Positions 28,701-61,687 of a stretch of DNA of 64,000 bases are shown one piece after another. The stretch comes from Candidatus Terrybacteria bacterium RIFCSPHIGHO2_01_FULL_48_17 (GTDB taxonomy: Bacteria; Patescibacteriota; Minisyncoccia; Terrybacterales; 2-01-FULL-58-14), in NCBI GenBank assembly GCA_001822835.1, contig MHSS01000002.1:65060-129059 (forward strand), written 5' to 3'. Position numbers and translations under genes: made by a program. The first letter of the stretch is position 1. Each line of letters starts with the position of its first letter. The notes under the pieces are model-generated. The model was not told where the DNA came from, searched no databases, and saw nothing but the letters and a program-made list of their open reading frames with translations.

Positions 28701-29294
28701 ATGACCACTCATCCTAAAGAAGAAAAAACACTGCTTATTATAAAGCCCGATGCGGTAAGGCGTGGCTTGATTGGGGAAATAATAAAACGCGTTGAGGTGC
28801 GAGGACTTAAAATTGTTGCCCTACGCATGTTTTGGGCAAAACCCGAGGATATGGACCGACATTATCCTAAGGATCAAACATGGATTAGGCGCTTGGGCGA
28901 AAAAACGCTTACTACCTACGAAAAATATGGATATGACGCCAAAAAAGAACTGGGAACTACTGATGTTTTAGAAATTGGTACACAGGTGCGAGGATGGCTG
29001 ATTTCGTTTATGACAGCCGGTCCCTTGGTGAAAATGATTGTTCAAGGAGTACACGCGGTTGATATGGTGCGAAAACTTGTCGGTCAAACCATGCCCGCGA
29101 TGGCGGAAATGGGAACTATCCGCGGAGATTATTCGGTTGATTCTGCTGCTGCGGCAAATCAAGACAAAAGAGCGGTTCGTAATTTAGTTCACGCATCCGA
29201 AACGCCCGATGAGGCGGCAAATGAGATTGGGCTTTGGTTTTCCAAAAACGAAATATTCGAGTATCCGCGGTCCGACGAAGATGCCATTTGGTAA
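28701..29294 (+). CDS. ndk: nucleoside diphosphate kinase (with internal insertion)
   Basis: LLIIKPDAVRRGLIGEII N-terminus, active-site His region (NLVHASE); about 50-aa insertion relative to canonical NDK. Confidence 0.8.
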   Translation: MTTHPKEEKTLLIIKPDAVRRGLIGEIIKRVEVRGLKIVALRMFWAKPEDMDRHYPKDQTWIRRLGEKTLTTYEKYGYDAKKELGTTDVLEIGTQVRGWLISFMTAGPLVKMIVQGVHAVDMVRKLVGQTMPAMAEMGTIRGDYSVDSAAAANQDKRAVRNLVHASETPDEAANEIGLWFSKNEIFEYPRSDEDAIW

Positions 29295-37789: not shown

Positions 37790-37863
37790 TGGTCGGGGTG
37801 GGGAGAATCGAACTCCCGCTACAAGACCCCCAGCCTTGCGTACTACCATTATACGACACCCCG
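37790..37863 (-). tRNA. tRNA-Pro (anticodon GGG), CCA encoded
   Basis: Hand-folded cloverleaf: acceptor CGGGGUG/CACCCCG, D arm GUAU/GUAC, anticodon loop CUGGGGG, T arm GGGAG-UUCGAUU-CUCCC, 3' ACCA. Confidence 0.8.
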
Positions 37864-37930
37864 AAGCCCGCCTCTGGCGGGAAACTCGAAATCCTAAATC
37901 CGAAATCCAAAATAAATCCAAAACAAAAAA

Positions 37931-37966
37931 TTCGTATATTCGTATCTATTCGTATTTCGTAGTATG
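37931..37966 (+). repeat. 36-nt TTCGTA-hexamer motif, copy 1 (ttcgtatattcgtatctattcgtatttcgtagtatg)
   Basis: Near-identical to the motifs at 40255-40290 and 45986-46020; here it lies between rpmB (minus strand) and tRNA-Pro. Confidence 0.7.
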
Positions 37967-37967
37967 G

Positions 37968-38180
37968 TCATCTTCCCTTTTTTGCTACTGTTCTCATGCA
38001 CTGGGTGCATGTCAAAAGACGAGTGCCTATGGCAAAACCCTTATATGTATACGGCAGCCGTAACCATTGGAGGTTTGGTTTTCTGTGAACAATTTTAGTG
38101 GGGTTATAGTGACCTCGGAGAAGTTTTCGTTTTCCACCCTTTAACCTCCCTTTGCCACATAATGCGCATTTTTTTTCCAT
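37968..38180 (-). CDS. rpmB: 50S ribosomal protein L28 (bL28)
   Basis: 70 aa, CxxC...CxxC zinc-ribbon L28 pattern with NP...NLQ core. Confidence 0.75.
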   Translation of the reverse strand: MEKKCALCGKGRLKGGKRKLLRGHYNPTKIVHRKPNLQWLRLPYTYKGFAIGTRLLTCTQCMRTVAKKGR

Positions 38181-38292
38181 AAAGTTTTGGTTATTGGGAT
38201 TTGGACATTTGGATTTTATCTGTTACCCTGTGTAAGGTAAACCCTATGCCTTATCCCTTATACCCTATACCCTATACTCTCATTTTTGCAAC

Positions 38293-38958
38293 ATGGATCC
38301 TATACTAGGCGGCCTTTTCACTAATGGGTTTAGTTTGGTGGTGATTCTTTTTTCTGCCATTTTGCATGAAGTCGCGCATGGCGCGATGGCATTGCGTTTG
38401 GGCGACCCTACGGCAAAATATGCAGGCCGTTTAACATTAAACCCTCTTAAACATTTAGACCCGTTCGGTTCGGTGCTTTTGCCGTTGCTGCTTATTCTTG
38501 CCCGTTCGCCCATTCTTTTTGGCTATGCGTTGCCCGTGCCGTACAACCCCTATTATTTCAAAAATCCAAAATGGGGAAGCGTATGGGTAGGGCTTGCCGG
38601 ACCCCTCACGAATATCCTTATTGCCGTTGTCTGTGCCGTGGGGTTGCGAATTCTCTTGGGCCTTGGCCTTACATTGCCGCCGCTTTTCCCGCTGCTGATA
38701 TTTTATGCGGTATTGTTAAATCTTTTTTTGGCATTGTTTAACTTAATCCCCATTCCTCCGCTTGACGGCTCAAAGTTACTCTTGGCAATATTTCCTGAAC
38801 CCCTTCGTGCATTGCAGGATTTTTTAAACCGGCTTGGAGTATTTGCCTTAGCGCTTTTGTTCCCCATACTTATTTTGGTGTTCGCCCCCATTCTTTCCCG
38901 TATTGCGATTACGGTAGCCGTATGGCTTATTGGAGGCCCGCTTCCAACCCCTCTCTAA
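38293..38958 (+). CDS. site-2 protease (peptidase M50) family membrane metalloprotease
   Basis: HEVAHG HExxH motif in the first TM helix, second motif LNL(F/I)P..PLDGS, polytopic. Confidence 0.8.
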   Translation: MDPILGGLFTNGFSLVVILFSAILHEVAHGAMALRLGDPTAKYAGRLTLNPLKHLDPFGSVLLPLLLILARSPILFGYALPVPYNPYYFKNPKWGSVWVGLAGPLTNILIAVVCAVGLRILLGLGLTLPPLFPLLIFYAVLLNLFLALFNLIPIPPLDGSKLLLAIFPEPLRALQDFLNRLGVFALALLFPILILVFAPILSRIAITVAVWLIGGPLPTPL

Positions 38959-39017
38959 TCCTTGCGTTTATATTTGGGATACTGTACCCTGTTTCCTGAA
39001 CCCTAAATCCTATTATC

Positions 39018-39428
39018 ATGCCTACTATCCACCAGCTTGTGAAAAGGCCGCGTAAAAGGGCGATCCGAAAATCGACTTCGCCCGCATTGGAATATTCGTT
39101 TAATGCCATTAAAAACCGACCCACGTTTCATGCCTCTCCTTTCAAACGCGGCGTGTGTATCAAGGTAACGACTGTTACGCCCAAAAAACCAAATTCTGCG
39201 TTGCGCAAAGTTGCGCGCGTACGTTTGTCAAACGGCATGGAAGTGACGGCATATATTCCGGGTGAAGGGCATACGCTGCAAGAGCACTCGATGGTGGTAA
39301 TTCGCGGCGGGCGCGTGAAAGATTTGCCCGGCGTGCGGTATCACGTGGTGAGGGGCGTTTTGGACGCTTCTGGGGTTGAGGGAAGAAAGCGGCGAAGAAG
39401 CAAGTATGGTACAAAGCAGCCGAAATAA
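39018..39428 (+). CDS. rpsL: 30S ribosomal protein S12 (with about 13-aa insertion near the N-terminus)
   Basis: [11 protein letters not shown]...[13 protein letters not shown] core; extra segment [13 protein letters not shown] between PAL and KRGVC. Confidence 0.92.
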
Positions 39429-39447
39429 TTAAGAAACAACTTTCATT

Positions 39448-39933
39448 TTGTGGTTTTTAAGTATGCGCAGGAACCGTAAACTTCATAAAAGAGAACAACT
39501 TGATCGTTTGTATAACTCGCCGCTGGTGGGCAAGCTTATCAATTATGTAATGTACGACGGAAGGCGGCTTACCGCCGAGAGAGTTGTGTATGCGGCGCTT
39601 AAAGAGGCGGCAAAGCGCACGGAGAAAGAGCCGCTTGCGGTATTTGAGGAAGCGCTTAAAAATACGTCCCCCGTGCTTGAGGTGCGCTCACGGCGCGTAG
39701 GGGGCGCAACGTATCAGGTGCCGCGCGAGGTTCGAGGAGAGCGCAGAGTACAATTGTCGCTTCGGTGGATTGTGGCTGCATCCCGCGGACATAAAAAACG
39801 AAAGAATATGGCAGAGGCGTTAGCCGAAGAGTTGGCACTGGCAGCGCAAGGACAGGGAAGTGCGGTGAAAAAGCGGGAGGATATGCATAAAATGGCAGAG
39901 GCGAACAGGGCGTTTGCGCATTTTGCATGGTAG
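39448..39933 (+). CDS. rpsG: 30S ribosomal protein S7
   Basis: S7 signature (DGRRLTAE...ALKE; SRRVGGATYQVP). Confidence 0.92.
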   Translation: MWFLSMRRNRKLHKREQLDRLYNSPLVGKLINYVMYDGRRLTAERVVYAALKEAAKRTEKEPLAVFEEALKNTSPVLEVRSRRVGGATYQVPREVRGERRVQLSLRWIVAASRGHKKRKNMAEALAEELALAAQGQGSAVKKREDMHKMAEANRAFAHFAW

Positions 39934-40024
39934 CTTTGGCGCTCGGGTAGCCCGCCTCGCGTCTGCAGGGGACCCTTGCGTTCCCTAAGGCCGCTTCGGC
40001 GTGCCACCGCTCGCGCCAAAGCTC
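39934..40024. repeat. hairpin-rich intergenic repeat, copy B (arms gctttggcgctcggg / ccgctcgcgccaaagc; its core is shared with copy C)
   Basis: Begins at the nucleotide after the rpsG stop; about 75-nt core about 90% identical to 42463-42546. Confidence 0.7.
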
Positions 40025-40188
40025 TCTTTATCCGCATGCGCAAGGAGGAGGGGGAGAGAAAAAACTAACTCCACAGCTTCGCTCACGCTCAGCAAGATTT
40101 TCGGGACTTTTCAAAACGCACCCTTCGCGCCTTCTTAATTGGAGGGGTGCGCGGAAGCCGGAAAAGAAAGGGTAAGAAAAACGAAAGT

Positions 40189-40212
40189 AATCCGCGGTGC
40201 GGATTTTTATTT
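40189..40212 (+). terminator. terminator-like hairpin (AATCCGC-GGT-GCGGATT + TTTATTTGGG) between rpsG and fusA
   Basis: Stem with T-run; implies fusA is transcribed from its own promoter. Confidence 0.45.
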
Positions 40213-40220
40213 GGGAAAAT

Positions 40221-40255
40221 TTGACGTATACTGCTTGAAGCGTTATTGTTATAAT
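40221..40255 (+). promoter_or_regulatory. candidate sigma-70-type promoter for fusA (TTGACG-N17-TATTGT, then TATAAT)
   Basis: Same TTGACG-N17-TATT.T architecture as the candidate tuf promoter at 43274. Confidence 0.35.
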
Positions 40256-40290
40256 TCGTATATTCGTATTCATTCGTACTTCGTAGTATT
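40255..40290 (+). repeat. 36-nt TTCGTA-hexamer motif, copy 2, ending 5 nt before the fusA ATG
   Basis: ttcgtatattcgtattcattcgtacttcgtagtatt; no SD between the motif and the start codon. Confidence 0.7.
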
Positions 40291-40295
40291 TATTT

Positions 40296-42419
40296 ATGCC
40301 TCGACAATATCCAATAGAACGTCTTCGCGACATTGGCATCATTGCCCACATTGACGCGGGCAAGACAACCGTAACCGAACGGGTGCTTTTCTATACCGGG
40401 ATTTCTCACAAAATCGGGGAGGTGCATGAAGGGCAGGCCGTTATGGATTGGATGGAACAGGAGCGCGAACGTGGTATTACCATAACATCCGCCGCCACCA
40501 CTTGTTTTTGGATACCGCTTGAGTTTACCGGTCTTGTAGACCAAGCAGCGCGAAAAGCAAAAGAATTTCGGTTCAATATCATCGATACCCCGGGCCACGT
40601 TGACTTTACTATTGAAGTTGAGCGGTCATTGCGCGTGCTTGACGGGGGCGTGGTTGTATTTGATGGAGTTGCGGGGGTGGAGCCGCAGTCGGAAACCGTA
40701 TGGCATCAGGCAGACCGGTATCACGTTCCTCGTATTTGTTTCATTAACAAACTTGATCGCCTCGGGGCTTCATTTGAAAAATCGCTTGCATCAATTCACG
40801 AACGCTTAACCCCCCATGCCGTAGCGTTGCAGCTCCCTATTGGTATTGAGGATTCGTTTTCCGGCGTTGTTGATCTTTTGCTTGAAAAAGCAATTCGTTT
40901 TGAAGGGGAACACGGGGAGAAAGTAGTATATGGGGATATCCCTGAAAACATGAAAGCGGAGGTGCGAAAAGCGCGTGAAGCGCTTATTGAAAAAATTGTT
41001 GAGCATGACGATACGCTCATGGAAAAATATCTAGCAGGAGAGATGCCCTCGGTTGATGAGTTGCGCGCGGTTTTGCGAAAAGCAACCATTACAGGAAAGG
41101 TGATCCCGGTACTATGTGGCTCGGCCTTAAAAAACAAGGGTGTGCAGCCCTTGCTTGATGCGGTGGTTTATTATCTTCCGTCTCCACCCGAGCTTCCACC
41201 GGTTGAGGGTACGCACCCCAAAACCGAAGCGCAGGAAACCCGTGAGCCCGATGACAATATGCCCTTTGCCGCTTTGGCTTTTAAAGTTGCAACGGATCCT
41301 TATGTTGGGCAATTAACTTTCTTCCGTGTATATTCGGGAACCTTAGGTCGAGGATCTTACGTGTTAAATACTACTTCCGGCGAGAAAGAGCGGATTGGTC
41401 GCATTGTGCGCATGCATGCAAATACCCGAGAAGAGGTTGAGGAAATGTTTGCGGGAGATATCGGCGCAATCGTGGGACTCAAAAATACTTCTACCGGAGA
41501 TACGTTGTGTGCGCCAGAAAAACCAATTGTGCTTGAGCGTATTACCATTCCAGAACCCGTAATCTCCGTACGGATTGAACCAAAATCGAAAGCGGATGAA
41601 GAAAAACTTGGGATGGCGCTTCGCCGGCTTGCAGAAGAAGATCCCACGTTTCGTGTTTCCGGTGATCAAGAAACGGGTGATACGATTATTTCTGGAATGG
41701 GGGAGCTTCATCTTGAAATTATTGTCGACAGAATGAAACGCGAATTTTCCGTTGATGCAAATGTCGGCGCGCCACAAGTTGCATACAAAGAAACCGTTTT
41801 AACAACGGCGGAAGCGGAAGGAAAATATATTCGCCAGACGGGCGGGCGCGGGCAATACGGCCATGTATGGCTTCGGGTGGAGCCGACGGAGCGAGGATCG
41901 GGTTTTGAATTTGTTGATGCAATTAGGGGAGGAGTAATTCCTAACGAATTTATCCCTGCAGTTGGCAAGGGCGTGAAGGAGGCAATGGATAAAGGAATTG
42001 TGGCCGGTTACCCGATGGTGGATGCGAAAGTAACGCTTTATGACGGCTCGTACCATGACGTTGATTCTTCAGAGGCCGCGTTTAAAATCGCCGGCTCCAT
42101 GGCATTTCAGGAAGCAGCAAAACGGGCAAAGCCGGTTATGTTGGAACCGGTAATGAGCTTATCGGTGGTGGTACCAGAACAATTTTTGGGCGATATTACG
42201 GGGGATATTTCGTCCAGACGCGGCCGCATTGAGGAGCTTGGCGAGCGCGGACAAATGAAGGAGGTAGATTCAAAAGTGCCCTTGTCTGAAATGTTTGGCT
42301 ATGCCACGCAACTTCGCTCTATGACACAGGGAAGGGGAGCGTTTACCATGGAATTTTCACATTACGAGGAGGTGCCCGGGAATATTGCGCAGGAGATTGC
42401 GGCAGGGAAGCGGAGATAA
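40296..42419 (+). CDS. fusA: elongation factor G
   Basis: [10 protein letters not shown]1 motif, DTPGHVDF, full five-domain length (707 aa). Confidence 0.95.
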
Positions 42420-42420
42420 T

Positions 42421-42590
42421 GCTCGCGATAGCGCTTTTCGCTTTCTTCGGCTTGTCGATTTCTTGGGCGCTCGGGTAACCCGCCTCACGTCTGCAGGGTA
42501 CCCTTCCGTTCCCTAAGGCCGCTTGGCGGGCCACCGCTCGCGCCCAACAATTTTTGACCTCGTAACCCGCTCAAATCACTATCGCTCGCT
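42421..42590. repeat. hairpin-rich intergenic repeat, copy C (composite: arms like copy A, core like copy B)
   Basis: Starts 1 nt after the fusA stop; left arm gctcgcgatagcgcttttcgctttc matches copy A; right arm ctcgtaacccgctcaaa...atcgctcgc matches copy A 5170-5203. Confidence 0.7.
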
Positions 42591-42763
42591 AGAGAAATCG
42601 AGACGCTTTTCAAAACGCATCTTCTCGCGCCTAAGAATGAGGGAGGAAAAAAGAAGCCGCCGGTGGGCGGCTGTTGTTATCCCGAGCCGGGTCGAAGGAT
42701 TGATTTTTTTGATAGAAATGGTATATGATTTTTGCACGTTTAGAATTCGAAAAGGAGGATGTT

Positions 42764-43480
42764 ATGACTGCCCCGAATATCTATCTTCGCGCATGGTATG
42801 CGCGATACGGTTTCTCCGATGCCGAATCGTTTCGAGATGCTCTTCTTTCTTCTTTCTCGGGCGCGCCTCTTTTGTCACAGTTTCAGGAAAGGAAAATCGT
42901 GTTATTCCGCAGAACCCGAATATCGCATTTCGCCTTACTTGATGTCTATGACGATGGGTTTCATATTTTATTGAATCGAGAAAGAAGCGTACGCCAGTGG
43001 CTTGTTGACATCGGACACGAGCTTATTCATACGTTTCATTATGATCTTTCGACTCTTCCGCCAGTAAATCTGTTTCGAAAGATGTTCGGGGATCCCGATC
43101 CCGCGCTTGAATATTTTTGTGATTCTGTGGCACGCCGGTGGTTGTTGCAAGATCGGAACGCACGGGCATTGGTTGCACTCTTACGGTCGCAAAGATGGCA
43201 GGGCGAGGTGTTGTGGATTCCAAAACCGCTCCATATGGGCGGTTTCCCCTTTTTATGTATATATTGTAAGGGCTTGACGGATTGTTTTGCCTTGACTATT
43301 ATAATGGTTGCGCTGTATAACAGTGAAGTTAGCTTTATTAATGAAATCCCTCGATTGCGCAGTGATTGCAAAAGGAAGTCCCTCGTTTTGCTTGGGGATC
43401 TACTTTCGCAGCCACTCGCGAAGCTCGCGGGCGAAAGTAACATATGGCAGGAAAATTTGAACGCACCAAACCTCACGTAA
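42764..43480 (+). CDS. hypothetical HExxH protein (ImmA/IrrE- or SprT-like putative zinc metallopeptidase) inserted between fusA and tuf
   Basis: AAAAGGAGG SD 8 nt before the ATG at 42764; motif [13 protein letters not shown]; the 3' end overlaps the tuf start by 37 nt and contains the candidate tuf promoter, so the true stop may be earlier (possibly decayed). Confidence 0.45.
43274..43305 (+). promoter_or_regulatory. candidate sigma-70-type promoter for tuf (TTGACG-N17-TATTATAAT)
   Basis: Good -35/-10 with 17-nt spacer about 140 nt upstream of the tuf ATG. Confidence 0.4.
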
Positions 43481-44637
43481 ACGTAGGAACTGTTGGTCAC
43501 GTTGACCACGGCAAGACCACCCTGACTGCGGCAATCATGCACGGCCTGAAACTTAAAGGTCTTATTGACACCGCAGAATCGGTCGACCAGATCGATAATG
43601 CTCCCGAAGAGAAGGCGCGTGGTATTACCATAGCCCTTCACCACTCCGAATACGAAACAGAAAAGCGTCACTATGCACACATCGATGCTCCCGGACACGC
43701 CGACTATATTAAAAACATGATTACGGGGGCAGCCCAAATGGACGGTGCGGTTTTGGTGGTTTCTGCAGCCGACGGCCCGATGCCCCAGACGCGCGAACAT
43801 ATTCTTTTGGCGCGGCAGGTGGGAGTTCCTAAAATTATCGTCTTTTTGAATAAAGTTGACGCGGTTGACGATCCTGAATTTATTGATATTGCAGAATCGG
43901 AAGTGCGGGACCTTTTGAAAAAATATGAGTATCCTGGCGATGAAATTCCTGTGGTTAGGGGATCGGCGCTCAAAGCCCTTGAGGCAAAATCCGCGGATGA
44001 CGAGGCGGTAAAACCCATTTTTGAGCTTTTGGCAAAATTGGATGAGTATATTCCGGAACCGCAAAGAGATATCGACAAACCTTTCTTGATGCCCGTTGAG
44101 GATATTTTTTCCATTGAGGGTCGCGGAACAGTGGTTACCGGAAGGATCGAACGCGGGCTTATTAAGCTTAATGATGAGATAGAAGTCATTGGATTGCGGC
44201 CAACGCAAAAGACCGTGATTACGGGTATTGAGATGTTCCGCAAGAGCTTGGACGAAGGCCGGGCAGGGGATAATGCCGGACTCCTTTTACGAGGCCTTAA
44301 GAAGGAGGATGTCGAGCGCGGGCAGGTCCTTGCAAAGCCAGGAAGCGTTACCCCGCATACTGAATTTGAGTGCGAACTTTATGTGTTAACAAAAGATGAA
44401 GGCGGCCGCCATACGCCCTTCTTTACCGGTTACAAACCCCAGTTTTATATCCGAACGTGTGACGTGACTGGAGAGGTTACGCTTCCGGAGGGCACAGAAA
44501 TGGTGATGCCAGGAGATACGGTGTCGGTGAAATCGAAATTAATGGCTCCGGTTGCGCTGGAGGAGAAACAGCGGTTTGCGGTGCGCGAAGGCGGACGAAC
44601 TGTTGGTGCAGGAGTGGTTACAAAAATTATTCAATAA
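43444..44637 (+). CDS. tuf: elongation factor Tu
   Basis: [26 protein letters not shown] motifs; 397 aa. Confidence 0.97.
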
Positions 44638-44711
44638 TACACACCATTGATTTGCGCTAGGGTGATAACGGGGCGCGCTGTTCTTTGAGGTGATATTTTA
44701 TCCGTTTTTAC

Positions 44712-45074
44712 ATGGCCGATGCTCCCTTAAAGGAAAAGAAAACAAAAGCGGTGCCGGAGATCGAAACGACACCAAAGCTACGTATTAAAGTTCGGGCATA
44801 CGACCATAAGGTTTTGGACAATTCGTGCCGACAAATTGTGGAAACGGCGTTGCGCGCAAATGCGGAAGTATATGGTCCGGTACCTTTACCCACGGAGTTT
44901 CATCGTTACACCGTAAACCGTTCCACGTTTGTGCACAAAGATGCACAGGAGCAATTCGAAATTCGTGTTCATCGTCGCCTCATTGATATCGTAAACCCTT
45001 CCCAGAAACTTATCGATGCGCTCACCAATTTGACCTTGCCAACCGGTGTTGATGTTGAGATAAAGGCCGTTTAA
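44712..45074 (+). CDS. rpsJ: 30S ribosomal protein S10
   Basis: S10 core ([14 protein letters not shown]...GPVPLPT...[10 protein letters not shown]). Confidence 0.92.
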
Positions 45075-45178
45075 GTATTTCTTTTAGAAACATGCGAATG
45101 AACTAGTATGCACTGTTGAGTCGCGAGAGCCAGGCCCGCTCCGGCGGGCTTTCTTTATGCCCGCGGCATTTAAACATT

Positions 45179-45781
45179 ATGAAATTTCTTTTAGGAACGA
45201 AAATAGGAATGAGCCAAACATGGAAAACGGATGGGGGCGTAGTTCCGCTTACCGTTATTCAGGCGGGGCCCATGGTGGTTACTCAAAAAAAGACATCAGA
45301 AAGGGATGGTTATGAAGCCATACAAGTATCCCTTGGCAAAAGAAAACGGCTTAAGAAGCCGCAACAAGGACATCTGAAGAAGGGCAAAACTGATACCGCA
45401 CGCTGGTTGCGCGAAGCTCGCGGGGCATGGAACGTAGAGTCAGGGGCCGTTATTGATGTATCCGTATTTGTTCCAGGTGATATTGTTAAGGTTTCCGGCA
45501 TTTCCAAAGGGAAGGGTTTTCAGGGAGGTGTAAAGCGACATGGTTTTCATGGGGCTTCGGCAACGCATGGTACCAAACATGCGCATAGACAGCCCGGATC
45601 TATTGGATCTTCTTGGCCCGAGCGAGTGCGAAAGGGAAAGAGAATGGCAGGAAGGATGGGGCATGAGCGGGTTACGGTGAAAAACCTAGAAGTGGTGAGT
45701 GTGGACAAAGAGAAAAATTTGTTGGCGGTGAAAGGAGCGGTGCCTGGTGCACGGGGAACGTTGCTTGAGATACGGGGCTAG
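45179..45781 (+). CDS. rplC: 50S ribosomal protein L3
   Basis: MKFLLGTKIGMSQ... L3 N-terminus; the ORF track's upstream extension from 45116 spans a GC hairpin and is unlikely to be coding. Confidence 0.9.
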   Translation: MKFLLGTKIGMSQTWKTDGGVVPLTVIQAGPMVVTQKKTSERDGYEAIQVSLGKRKRLKKPQQGHLKKGKTDTARWLREARGAWNVESGAVIDVSVFVPGDIVKVSGISKGKGFQGGVKRHGFHGASATHGTKHAHRQPGSIGSSWPERVRKGKRMAGRMGHERVTVKNLEVVSVDKEKNLLAVKGAVPGARGTLLEIRG

Positions 45782-45784
45782 ATC

Positions 45785-45945
45785 GGATGCTTGGGATGCG
45801 TCTCGAAAAGACGTGTCGCGCGCCCAGCGAGGCGCGCGCACTCTCGCTCGGCGTTGTTCTCCCGCCAACGATTAAACTTTTAGGGAAGGCGGGAACCATG
45901 CCCGCAACGCCTCCGCGAAGCTTTTCTCAACACATCCCAAGCATC
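45785..45945. repeat. hairpin-rich intergenic repeat, copy D (arms ggatgcttgggatg / catcccaagcatc)
   Basis: Starts 4 nt after the rplC stop; shares the ggaaccatgcccgc segment with copies E and F. Confidence 0.65.
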
Positions 45946-45985
45946 TGACGAGATTTTCATTTTGTCAAAGTGGCGTGAAAAAAGA

Positions 45986-46020
45986 TTCGTATATTCTTAT
46001 CGATTCGTACTTCGTAGTAT
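45986..46020 (+). repeat. 36-nt TTCGTA-hexamer motif, copy 3, ending 3 nt before the rplD ATG
   Basis: ttcgtatattcttatcgattcgtacttcgtagtat. Confidence 0.7.
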
Positions 46021-49562: not shown

Positions 49563-49665
49563 TTTAATTTCTAATTAACCTAATTGACCTAAGTGTTTAT
49601 GTGGTTTTGAATTAGTCATTCATTAGATCAATTAGAGATTAGAGCAATTAGACATTTTTACGGTT

Positions 49666-49698
49666 ATGCTAATTCCCAAGAAAGTAAAACATCTCAAG
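49666..49698 (+). pseudogene. displaced duplicate of the rplP 5' end (encodes MLIPKKVKHLK, compare real [11 protein letters not shown]), followed by unrelated sequence
   Basis: 33-nt segment 27/33 identical to the real rplP start at 49875; continues into a GC hairpin (gcccgcctcgggcgggc), not into an L16 body. Confidence 0.6.
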
Positions 49699-49874
49699 TC
49701 GCCCGCCTCGGGCGGGCTCTCAAGAAACCCTCGGTTTCTTGCGCTCGCCTTCGGCTCGCTGGTTTCCGATACGGGAAACTTCCGTTTTCCGACCCTTTCC
49801 CGATTTTCAATGTTTTACTTTTTGCCCGGACAACATGTTTGCATGAAAAAATATAAGGTTATGGTTTTTGCGCT

Positions 49875-50285
49875 ATGCTGATGCCTAAAAAGGTAAAACA
49901 TCGAAAGTGGCAGAAGGGTAGATCTCGCGGAATGGCGTCGCGGGGAACCACCCTTGCGTTCGGCGCCTACGGTCTTAAAGCCGAAGGCACGTCTTGGATC
50001 TCATCTCGTCAGATTGAGGCGGCGCGTCGTGCTATTATCAGAACTGCTCGCAAAGGCGGAAAAGTTTGGGTTCGCATTTTTCCGGATAAGCCAGTTACGC
50101 AAAAAGGAACCGAAGTACCCATGGGTGGGGGAAAGGGCGCGCTGGATCACTATGTGTTTCCGGTAACCCCCGGGCGAATTCTCTTTGAGCTTGATGGTGT
50201 TGAGGAGGATATTGCACGCCATGCGCTTCGCCTTGGTGCCCATAAGCTTCCAATAGCGGCGCGCTTTGTACGGCGTGAACACTAA
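49875..50285 (+). CDS. rplP: 50S ribosomal protein L16
   Basis: [15 protein letters not shown]...RIFPDKPVT...GKG L16 motifs. Confidence 0.93.
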
Positions 50286-60937: not shown

Positions 60938-61687
60938 ATGAACATAGGAAAACCATATCTTTCCATCATTATCCCTGCCTATAACGAAGGGGAGCGTATC
61001 GGATCAACGCTAAAGGCGGTTGCGGGCTTTATAGAGAAGCAGTCGTATTCGGCTGAAATTTTGGTGGTGAGCGACGGCTCAACAGATAAGACCGTCGAAA
61101 TTGCAGAGAGCGCCAGGGATCATATATCTTCGCTTCGTGTGATAGAAAACAAGGAGAATCACGGGAAGGGATGGGTAGTGAGACAAGGCATGCTTGAGGC
61201 GCAGGGTGGCTTCCGTTTATTCACCGACGCCGATAACGCAACTCCTATTGAGGAATTTGAGAAGCTTCTTGGTTGGGTTAAACCACAAGGCATTTATGAT
61301 ATTGCGATTGGCTCTATTGGTTTAAAAGAAAGCAAAGTAGACCGGCCTGAACCTTTGCCGCGCGTGATTGCAGGCCGCATGGCGAATTTTTTGATCCAGA
61401 CAGTGGCTGTTCCGGGAATTCAGGATACGCAGCGAGGGTTTAAGTTGTTTACCGCAGAAAGCGCTGAAGCTATTTTTTCAAAAACCAAAATAGACCGCTG
61501 GGGTTTTGATATCGAAGTACTTGCTTTGGCGCGAAAGCTTGGCTTCACCGTTAAGGAAGTGCCCATCCGTTGGATTCATATGGCCGGCTCCAAAGTGAAG
61601 GCGGATATTTATTACAAGACCTTGGCGGAACTCGCAAAAATACGATGGTGGCTATGGACGAATTCTTATGGAATTCGTCGAAATTGA
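60938..61687 (+). CDS. glycosyltransferase family 2 (dolichyl-phosphate mannose/glucose synthase-like)
   Basis: LSIIIPAYNE ... VVSDGSTD ... DAD GT-A motifs. Confidence 0.85.
   Translation: MNIGKPYLSIIIPAYNEGERIGSTLKAVAGFIEKQSYSAEILVVSDGSTDKTVEIAESARDHISSLRVIENKENHGKGWVVRQGMLEAQGGFRLFTDADNATPIEEFEKLLGWVKPQGIYDIAIGSIGLKESKVDRPEPLPRVIAGRMANFLIQTVAVPGIQDTQRGFKLFTAESAEAIFSKTKIDRWGFDIEVLALARKLGFTVKEVPIRWIHMAGSKVKADIYYKTLAELAKIRWWLWTNSYGIRRN

Follow-up and report, generated by a model that had tools for sequence, protein, structure and literature searches.

Repeated TTCGTA arms before fusA and rplD of a Terrybacteria genome: probable solo terminal repeats of a small GxxExxY cassette family

The DNA analysed here, referred to as the window, is a stretch of 64,000 nt from Candidatus Terrybacteria bacterium RIFCSPHIGHO2_01_FULL_48_17 (contig MHSS01000002.1, positions 65,060 to 129,059), a bacterium of the candidate phyla radiation (CPR) from Rifle groundwater. 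It contains three copies of an arm of about 35 nt, each with four TTCGTA-type words, and two of these copies end shortly before the start codons of fusA and rplD. The three copies are probably (at a rough estimate, with a probability of 0.72) solo arms that represent terminal repeats of small selfish cassettes, a family in which a gene for a GxxExxY protein is enclosed by two inverted arms, and of the derivatives of these cassettes without an open reading frame (ORF), which resemble miniature inverted-repeat transposable elements (MITEs). The partner arms and the cargo would have been lost from the window, leaving a left arm as copy 1 and right arms as copies 2 and 3.

Three arm copies in the window

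The three copies had already been noticed in a preliminary description of the sequence. Their existence was confirmed, and all are located on the + strand; the start positions given there were right, but the ends of copies 1 and 2 had been placed one base too far. Copy 1 (37931..37965) consists of four TTCGTA words followed by GTAT on the + strand and is a left arm relative to the minus-strand genes. It faces no gene. On the side of its TAGTAT end, it is separated by 2 nt from rpmB, the gene for L28 (37968..38180, minus strand), whose stop codon (37968-37970) abuts the arm. Between copy 1 and its other neighbour, tRNA-Pro(GGG) at 37790-37863, there are 68 nt, filled by other word-repeats of the GGATTT type. 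Copy 2 (40255..40289, + strand) is a right arm and ends 6 nt before the ATG of fusA, which codes for EF-G (40296..42419, + strand). Copy 3 (45986..46020, + strand), also a right arm, ends 3 nt before the ATG of rplD, which codes for L4 (46024..46677, + strand), and its second word has degenerated to TTCTTA. Counted from the last word, the distance to the ATG is 10 nt for copy 2 and 7 nt for copy 3, and the distance of copy 1 to the rpmB stop is 6 nt.

In a repeat search of the window, the copies were identified as one family of 41 nt with 85-90% identity. The 17-mer at the 3' end, TTCGTAYTTCGTAGTAT, has three exact matches in the window, where 0.15 would be expected even with up to three mismatches, and at least three matches were obtained in 0 of 100 shuffles. 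The copies align gap-free and column for column with the arms that flank GxxExxY genes in other genomes. Each of them has four words with starts about 8, 10 and 7 nt apart, the last being followed by G, and in each the outer end lies within a few nt of a coding sequence boundary. As RNA, the solo arms are AU-rich and essentially unstructured (z = -0.9 to -1.8), and the pairing of two arms gives folds of -25 to -28 kcal/mol (z about -5). When this region of the window was compared to Rfam at the gathering and E<=1 thresholds, tRNA-Pro was the sole match.

The GxxExxY cassette and its ORF-less derivatives

The motif was searched as an exact 17-mer in one genome per species (596 Gb), which resulted in 88 loci, many of them isolated; by our own estimate, roughly this number (about 140 in 596 Gb) is expected by chance. 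The full four-word architecture, TTCGTA-n(1-3)-TTCGTA-n(3-6)-TTCGTA-n-TTCGTA-GTAT, is present in about 30 of the loci, with TTCGTA-n2-TTCGTA-n4-TTCGTA-n-TTCGTAG as the typical arm. The hosts of these four-word arms are Patescibacteria (Doudnabacteria, Paceibacterota, Saccharibacteria, Wolfebacteria and Parcubacteria) and metagenome-assembled genomes of Bacteroidota, often with several copies per genome. The TAGTAT end of the arm is found 0-6 nt before a same-strand ATG, namely that of metK, rpsS, rpmB, gap, hrcA or a Mur ligase gene, or, in other arms, at -1 to +2 nt of the stop of a gene on the opposite strand. In many cases, the arm directly follows its own reverse complement, resulting in a palindrome of about 70 nt. 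Two groups of matches were set aside. The Sediminibacterium group represents a single orthologous locus with two words only, and the three matches from a scan of viral contigs, with two words each, were ascribed to chance.

At locus L057, a 130-aa ORF between inverted arms was identified as a member of PDDEXK_3/GxxExxY (PF13366, E = 5e-28; TIGR04256, E = 8e-29). By tblastn, GxxExxY genes were found to adjoin the arms in seven motif-derived loci from both phyla, and all seven share one layout, in which the upstream stop codon is followed by three to four TACGAA words, 15-30 nt, the GxxExxY ORF, 0-60 nt, four TTCGTA words, a few nt and the ATG of the downstream gene. The complete cassette has a length of about 470 nt. 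Its left end lies 1-8 nt past the upstream stop, and the last word of the right arm is located 4-10 nt before the downstream ATG in every word family.

An independent, reverse test was made on 80 GxxExxY loci from metagenomes, which were fetched by protein similarity alone. At least two TACGAA words are present within 150 nt upstream of the gene at 37 of the 80 loci and at least two TTCGTA words within 130 nt downstream at 36; both arms are present at 30, and hardly any word is oriented the wrong way round. In the other cassettes, an identical architecture is built from different words, such as TTTGTA, TTAGTA, TTAGAGA/TTCGAGA, TTCGTG and TTCGTT. A significant inverted repeat between the flanks (z of at least 4) was detected for 50 of 78 GxxExxY genes. 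The neighbouring genes are co-oriented with the GxxExxY gene in 64 of 67 cases upstream and in 63 of 67 downstream, and the median gap to a neighbour is about 52 nt, just enough room for one arm. Most complete cassettes have about 390-420 nt between their arms and a few have up to about 530 nt, compared to 3-19 nt in the ORF-less pairs. Tandem arrays of arms, with 10-14 words in repeated 35-nt units, flank cassettes at L113 (1325-1919) and L175 (1204-1832), which suggests arm amplification.

The word type tracks the clade of the GxxExxY protein, with some switches between TTCGTA and TTTGTA. In the protein, the D...E-x-K catalytic residues are invariant, and the predicted structure (predicted local distance difference test score 92) has a PD-(D/E)XK core closest to those of Cas4 SSO0001 and lambda exonuclease. 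This modelled core is compatible with a role in DNA cutting and specifies none. A sequence search of the PDB and a PADLOC search gave no functional lead for GxxExxY, and PDDEXK_3 has been listed as a family of function unknown with multiple transfers (PMC3424549). No published description of TTCGTA arms or of a GxxExxY cassette was found in a literature search of incomplete coverage, and the cassette family is apparently undescribed so far.

Evidence for mobility was obtained by comparison of loci. The cassettes of L109 and L110 are 93% identical over 460 nt, although both flanks are unrelated; the identity starts 0-1 nt past the upstream TAA and ends at TTCGTAGG. Judged from these sequences, the pair points to a mobile unit. 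At locus L152, a complete TTCGTA cassette is inserted exactly between the S7 stop codon (...KAFAHFAW*) and the EF-G ATG, in a genome whose EF-G and S7 are 68% and 50% identical to the proteins of the window. Since this is the junction of copy 2, the rpsG/fusA gap is a recurrent site, at which the window keeps the right arm only. Locus L095 (75% L4 identity) contains a solo left arm 4 nt past the rpsS stop, a junction which is empty in the window.

Arm pairs without an ORF were identified at L079, L012, L086, L074, L113 and L147. In Doudnabacteria nzgw378 (L079), such a palindrome occupies the entire dnaK-dnaJ spacer and leaves 0 nt to the stop codon on one side and to the ATG on the other, and in another Doudnabacteria genome (L074) a full cassette precedes dnaJ. 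A second palindrome of L079 is located in the hrcA leader, between the CIRCE element and the ATG. On a Paceibacterota contig (L012), the gene for 23S rRNA contains two arm-pair copies. The first, of 71 nt, is inserted into a hairpin loop at model position ~688; at the second, the helix of model positions 1210-1227, taken to be the helix-45 site of intervening sequences, has given way to the element hairpin (-24.8 kcal/mol, z = -4.9). At L086, a palindrome of 84 nt is inserted in frame in a loop of MnmA and adds residues which are absent from E. coli MnmA. The copies in rRNA and mnmA must have been ORF-less already when they were inserted.

This last observation, together with the finding that the GxxExxY gene is always located exactly between two arms, would also fit a different origin, in which the palindromes are primary or represent host structures, the GxxExxY gene is of the homing-endonuclease type and entered their centre, and the window arms are halves which never contained cargo. 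The presence of ORF-less and filled forms at the same dnaK/dnaJ junction (L079 versus L074) and the correspondence of word type and protein clade can be accommodated by it as well. However, L109 and L110 share the whole unit, arms plus gene, between unrelated flanks, and the window contains single arms rather than halves of an obvious palindrome. An origin of the window arms by homing is regarded as unlikely.

For the mobile cassette, the following mechanism is proposed. The repeated words would be binding sites of the element's own nuclease. They are considered to be nuclease recognition sites because the four words within an arm and the words of both arms change together between lineages, a pattern which selection for pairing alone would not produce. 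The nuclease would mobilise the arms at the DNA level, and ORF-less arm pairs would move in trans. Insertions would survive only where they are harmless, as in the gap between a stop and a start codon, at rRNA helix tips or in protein loops in compact genomes. In the transcript, paired arms would loop the insert out and bring the upstream stop next to the downstream start; such a loop-out would explain the tolerance in rRNA. If the arms paired as RNA, their mismatches might be biased towards wobble pairs; in a few mixed-word cassettes inspected by eye, however, the mismatches are G-A or A-C and not G-U, which gives no support for such a bias. The solo right arms would then form the unstructured, AU-rich 5' flank of fusA and rplD, devoid of a Shine-Dalgarno (SD) sequence. 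Taken as a whole, the combined proposal that GxxExxY proteins are the nucleases of tiny, undescribed mobile cassettes, that paired arms loop the insert out like an rRNA intervening sequence and thereby preserve the translation of the operon and the folding of the rRNA, and that solo arms became domesticated start regions of essential genes is possible but more doubtful than not.

Several findings weigh against the interpretation of the window copies as cassette remnants. No consistent direct repeat that would indicate a target-site duplication was found at 23 element junctions, where inverted similarity often reaches the stop and start codons. No GxxExxY gene or remnant is present in the window and 10 kb beyond (74 kb), and a profile search in six frames of the spacers before fusA and rplD revealed no decayed GxxExxY gene. 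The same 74 kb contains no inverted partner arm or TACGAA cluster for copies 1-3, and because both the partner arm and the gene are missing nearby, the copies are regarded as solo arms. The link of the copies to the cassette is consequently one of sequence and architecture without a local cargo gene, and that the GxxExxY protein acts on the arms is something we infer. In addition, the window arms are well kept (85-90%), and their ATG-proximal part is kept in relatives with 59-75% L4 identity, which hints at a selected role at the start codon. The outer arm ends hug the ends of coding sequences even where free intergenic DNA is available beyond (copy 1, L048, L066 and L110), and selection for harmless sites thus explains the placement incompletely. 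Nevertheless, the most economical interpretation is that the solo arms are remnants located directly 5' of fusA and rplD, where they are probably tolerated, with a mild constraint on the ATG-proximal part, rather than regulatory.

Start regions of fusA and rplD

Neither fusA nor rplD is preceded by an SD sequence, as had been stated in the preliminary description. This is usual here. Of the 67 window genes, 14 have an SD core of 4 nt between -4 and -20, compared to a background rate of 18.6%, so that SD use in the window is at background level and its absence from fusA and rplD is not special. A translation-initiation element for SD-less mRNAs, as which the motif had also been considered, is not needed, since most of the SD-less window genes are also without the TTCGTA motif, and copy 1 faces no gene. 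The right arms, which end 4-10 nt before the ATG, may still have a secondary role in translation. In several window genes, a TAnnAT-like hexamer is found 0-1 nt from the ATG, like TATTAT-C-ATG of rpsL at 39018 and TACAAT-ATG of the minus-strand gene ending at 2452, and in a few others a -10 box is located at leaderless distance (ndk at 28701 and the gene at 60938).

The context of copy 2 (40189..40264, + strand) comprises a hairpin and putative hexamer pairs before fusA. A terminator-like hairpin with a T-run is located at 40189-40212, about 50 nt upstream of the fusA arm. It is followed by two candidate sigma-70-like pairs, TTGACG-17-TATTGT at 40221-40249 and TTGAAG-18-TATATT at 40235-40264, both identified by consensus match only; if either of them were used, copy 2 would form the 5' untranslated region of fusA. 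The leaderless geometry, with a -10 TAnnnT ending 6-8 nt before the start, fits fusA (TAGTAT-N6-ATG), but neither rplD (N3) nor most family members (N0-3). Between fusA and tuf, an ORF of 251 aa (42725-43480) overlaps the tuf start by 37 nt. It has no match in Pfam or NCBIfam and is called as a gene in near-identical contigs too; at this position, L095 contains two other ORFs without Pfam matches.

The hairpin and the leaderless geometry bear on the possibility that the arm is a host expression element, either a region for SD-independent initiation or an outward promoter of the short-leader or leaderless type, which the cassette would carry to keep the downstream gene on. The constant position of the last word of the right arm relative to the ATG in every family, the SD-like arm tail in many variant cassettes (TTCGTAGGAGG, GTGGGAG) and the AU-rich, unstructured nature of the solo arms would be in agreement with it, as would the geometry of the fusA arm and the terminator-like hairpin upstream, which would require a promoter nearby. 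The persistence of ATG-proximal half arms in relatives can be added, as well as a palindrome of different words at 2453-2590 (described below), which must contain the promoters of two divergent genes. However, TAGTAT is located 0-3 nt from the ATG in most cases (rplD, metK, hrcA, rpmB and rpsS), too close for a leaderless -10, and the word variants (TTTGTA, TTAGAGA) keep no -10/-35 consensus; on these two grounds, the arm was rejected as a general leaderless promoter. Moreover, the same arm occurs inverted past stops, in rRNA and within an ORF, and most SD-less window genes manage without it. The L079 palindrome is located downstream of CIRCE in the hrcA leader, so that the promoter must lie elsewhere; this locus was rejected as promoter evidence, as the operon is on the other strand and the palindrome lies inside the leader. 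We consider a host expression element distinctly improbable.

Orthologous rplD leaders were compared, as suggested in the preliminary description. Degenerate ATG-proximal half arms are kept upstream of rplD in L095 and L100 (75% and 59% L4 identity). In the closer relative L099 (1-95, 89% L4 identity), however, a different palindrome with ATCCTTA/TAAGGAT words precedes rplD, which folds at -32 kcal/mol (z = -6.1) and in which the contig breaks.

The preliminary description had further considered a binding site of an autoregulatory ribosomal protein, with L4 and S7 as models. An autogenous operator of this kind, or a site of another host transcription factor with a regulon including fusA and rplD, might be suspected, as four phased direct repeats resemble the site of a multimeric protein and two of the copies precede translation genes. 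The evidence from other genomes contradicts this: the same arm is found in other phyla before metK, hrcA, dnaJ, a Mur ligase gene, gap, rpsS and rpmB, and it also occurs inverted past stops, within 23S rRNA, within mnmA and at both sides of the GxxExxY nuclease gene. In the window, no structure mimicking rRNA and no Rfam match was found for the arm, and copy 1 faces the 3' end of rpmB. Since the orthologous rplD leaders differ as well, with the different palindrome in the relative of 89% L4 identity, an operator of a ribosomal protein is largely refuted and given hardly any credence. Like the arm copies, the known sites of the E. coli S10-operon L4 leader and the str-operon S7 site are located in the S10 and str clusters, which is the only likeness; the arm lacks structure, orthologous leaders do not preserve it, and it is found at many loci with no relation to these operons.

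Copy 1 is antisense to copies 2 and 3, with about 85-90% complementarity over 35 nt, and the stable duplexes of paired arms (-25 to -28 kcal/mol in the palindromic forms) would permit a transcript of the rpmB 3' untranslated region or tRNA-Pro leader to pair in trans with the fusA and rplD starts and to couple their translation to rpmB. This complementarity, however, follows purely from the inverted-repeat nature of the family, and the arrangement is not conserved in relatives, as L095 contains a left arm after rpsS instead. Such an antisense regulation is thus very improbable.

Comparison with known elements and further repeats

Among known elements, MITEs such as the Correia elements of Neisseria resemble the cassette family in being short and dispersed, with terminal inverted repeats, in being inserted beside genes and co-transcribed with them, in having ORF-less copies that share the arms with a longer, gene-carrying form, and in forming long hairpins from paired arms. 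As in MITEs, terminal inverted repeats, small size and multiple dispersed copies are found in the family as a whole, and the window copies are single arms. Unlike MITEs, the cassette arms consist of four direct repeats of a 6-nt word, a target-site duplication could not be defined, the cargo is a protein of 130 aa with a predicted PD-(D/E)XK fold and not a known transposase, the ends lie a few nt from stop and start codons, and members occur in two phyla. The Rickettsia palindromic elements are likewise palindromic and occur in frame in genes and in structural RNA, as seen for mnmA at L086 and 23S rRNA at L012, but their sequence and hosts are unrelated, they have no associated gene, and the usual site of the cassette is the stop/start gap of an operon.

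The intervening sequences of 23S rRNA share with L012 the replacement of a helix tip by an extended AU-rich hairpin and with the cassette a layout in which inverted repeats enclose a small ORF. An extended stem-loop inserted at a helix tip was found for the family and not for the window copies; in addition, most cassette copies are located between protein genes, and the cargo is GxxExxY and not an S23p or four-helix-bundle protein. Repetitive extragenic palindromic (REP) sequences, in bacterial interspersed mosaic elements and with their REP-associated tyrosine transposases (RAYTs, of the Y1 type), are extragenic repeats at gene ends, often in inverted pairs, which can flank a small nuclease-type gene in a REPtron, and they have a GTAG/GTGG motif like the one at the end of the arm. 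Single cassette arms, however, are not palindromes and do not fold, their GTAG is at the outer 3' end and not in a 5' head, and the protein belongs to PF13366/TIGR04256 with a predicted PD-(D/E)XK fold instead of HUH/Y1, so that the family does not belong to REP/RAYT. From MITEs, Rickettsia palindromic elements, intervening sequences and REPtrons alike, the cassette family is distinguished by its word-repeat arms, its predicted PD-(D/E)XK cargo, its lodging between stop and start codons and its presence in two phyla.

As a signal of fusA and rplD, the arm is ordinary; its interest is that it gives access to the cassette family. A tempting false lead, a new ribosomal protein operator or special start signal for SD-less genes, is removed, and the very widespread GxxExxY family (TIGR04256/PF13366), which has no assigned function, gains a context as cargo, carried by a cassette whose ends can be recognised. 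This selfish element would have colonised the most conserved operons (str, S10 and dnaK), rRNA and coding sequence in the streamlined genomes of CPR bacteria and in Bacteroidota, and it would account for recurrent assembly breaks and odd long spacers in the ribosomal protein clusters of CPR bacteria. It also offers a testable system for insertions made harmless to operon expression.

Other repeats are present in the window. A GC-rich, hairpin-forming repeat of about 90 nt occurs at 39934-40020, directly past the rpsG stop, and at 42462-42547, about 40 nt past the fusA stop, with about 92% identity. The preliminary description had assumed that the TTCGTA motif might be a dispersed repeat which travels with such structured elements. 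It was right as to the kind of element, but the partner of the arm is the GxxExxY gene with the inverted second arm; as the copy after fusA occurs without a TTCGTA arm, the GC-rich repeats are not the partner and form a separate element family. Immediately past the rplC stop, a long-range stem with 28-nt arms, 110 nt apart, is located at 45783-45948 and has no Rfam match. A similar structured GC-rich element with changed sequence is found at the same place in L095 (4112-4330) and L100 (488-640), the relatives with 75% and 59% L4 identity. The enlarged rplC-rplD spacer of L100 also contains a small zinc-ribbon-like ORF on the minus strand (770-930, MTRYYWYFYCTNCGKRCENPYEKERCLFCDG...).

The palindrome at 2453-2590 has a length of 138 nt and consists of other words, AAATGTCC/A on the left and TGGGATTT/TGGCATTT on the right. 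It takes up the whole spacer of two divergent genes, with 0 nt left at the CAT and at the ATG, and has a folding energy of -51 kcal/mol (z = -5.6). The promoters of both genes must be contained in it. At 49563-49881, a second rplP 5' end is present upstream of rplP (ATGCTAATTCCCAAGAAAGTAAAACATCTCAAG compared to ATGCTGATGCCTAAAAAGGTAAAACATCGAAAG), preceded by ATTAGA/TTAGAGA-type words and followed by about 180 nt of GC-rich structured sequence, which looks like an insertion into the rplP start with target duplication. Finally, word-repeats fill further spacers, with four AAATCC words beside arm copy 1 (37880-37925) and CCAAAT and CCTATAC words between rpmB and an M50 peptidase gene (38181-38292), and spacers of this type seem to be common throughout this genome.

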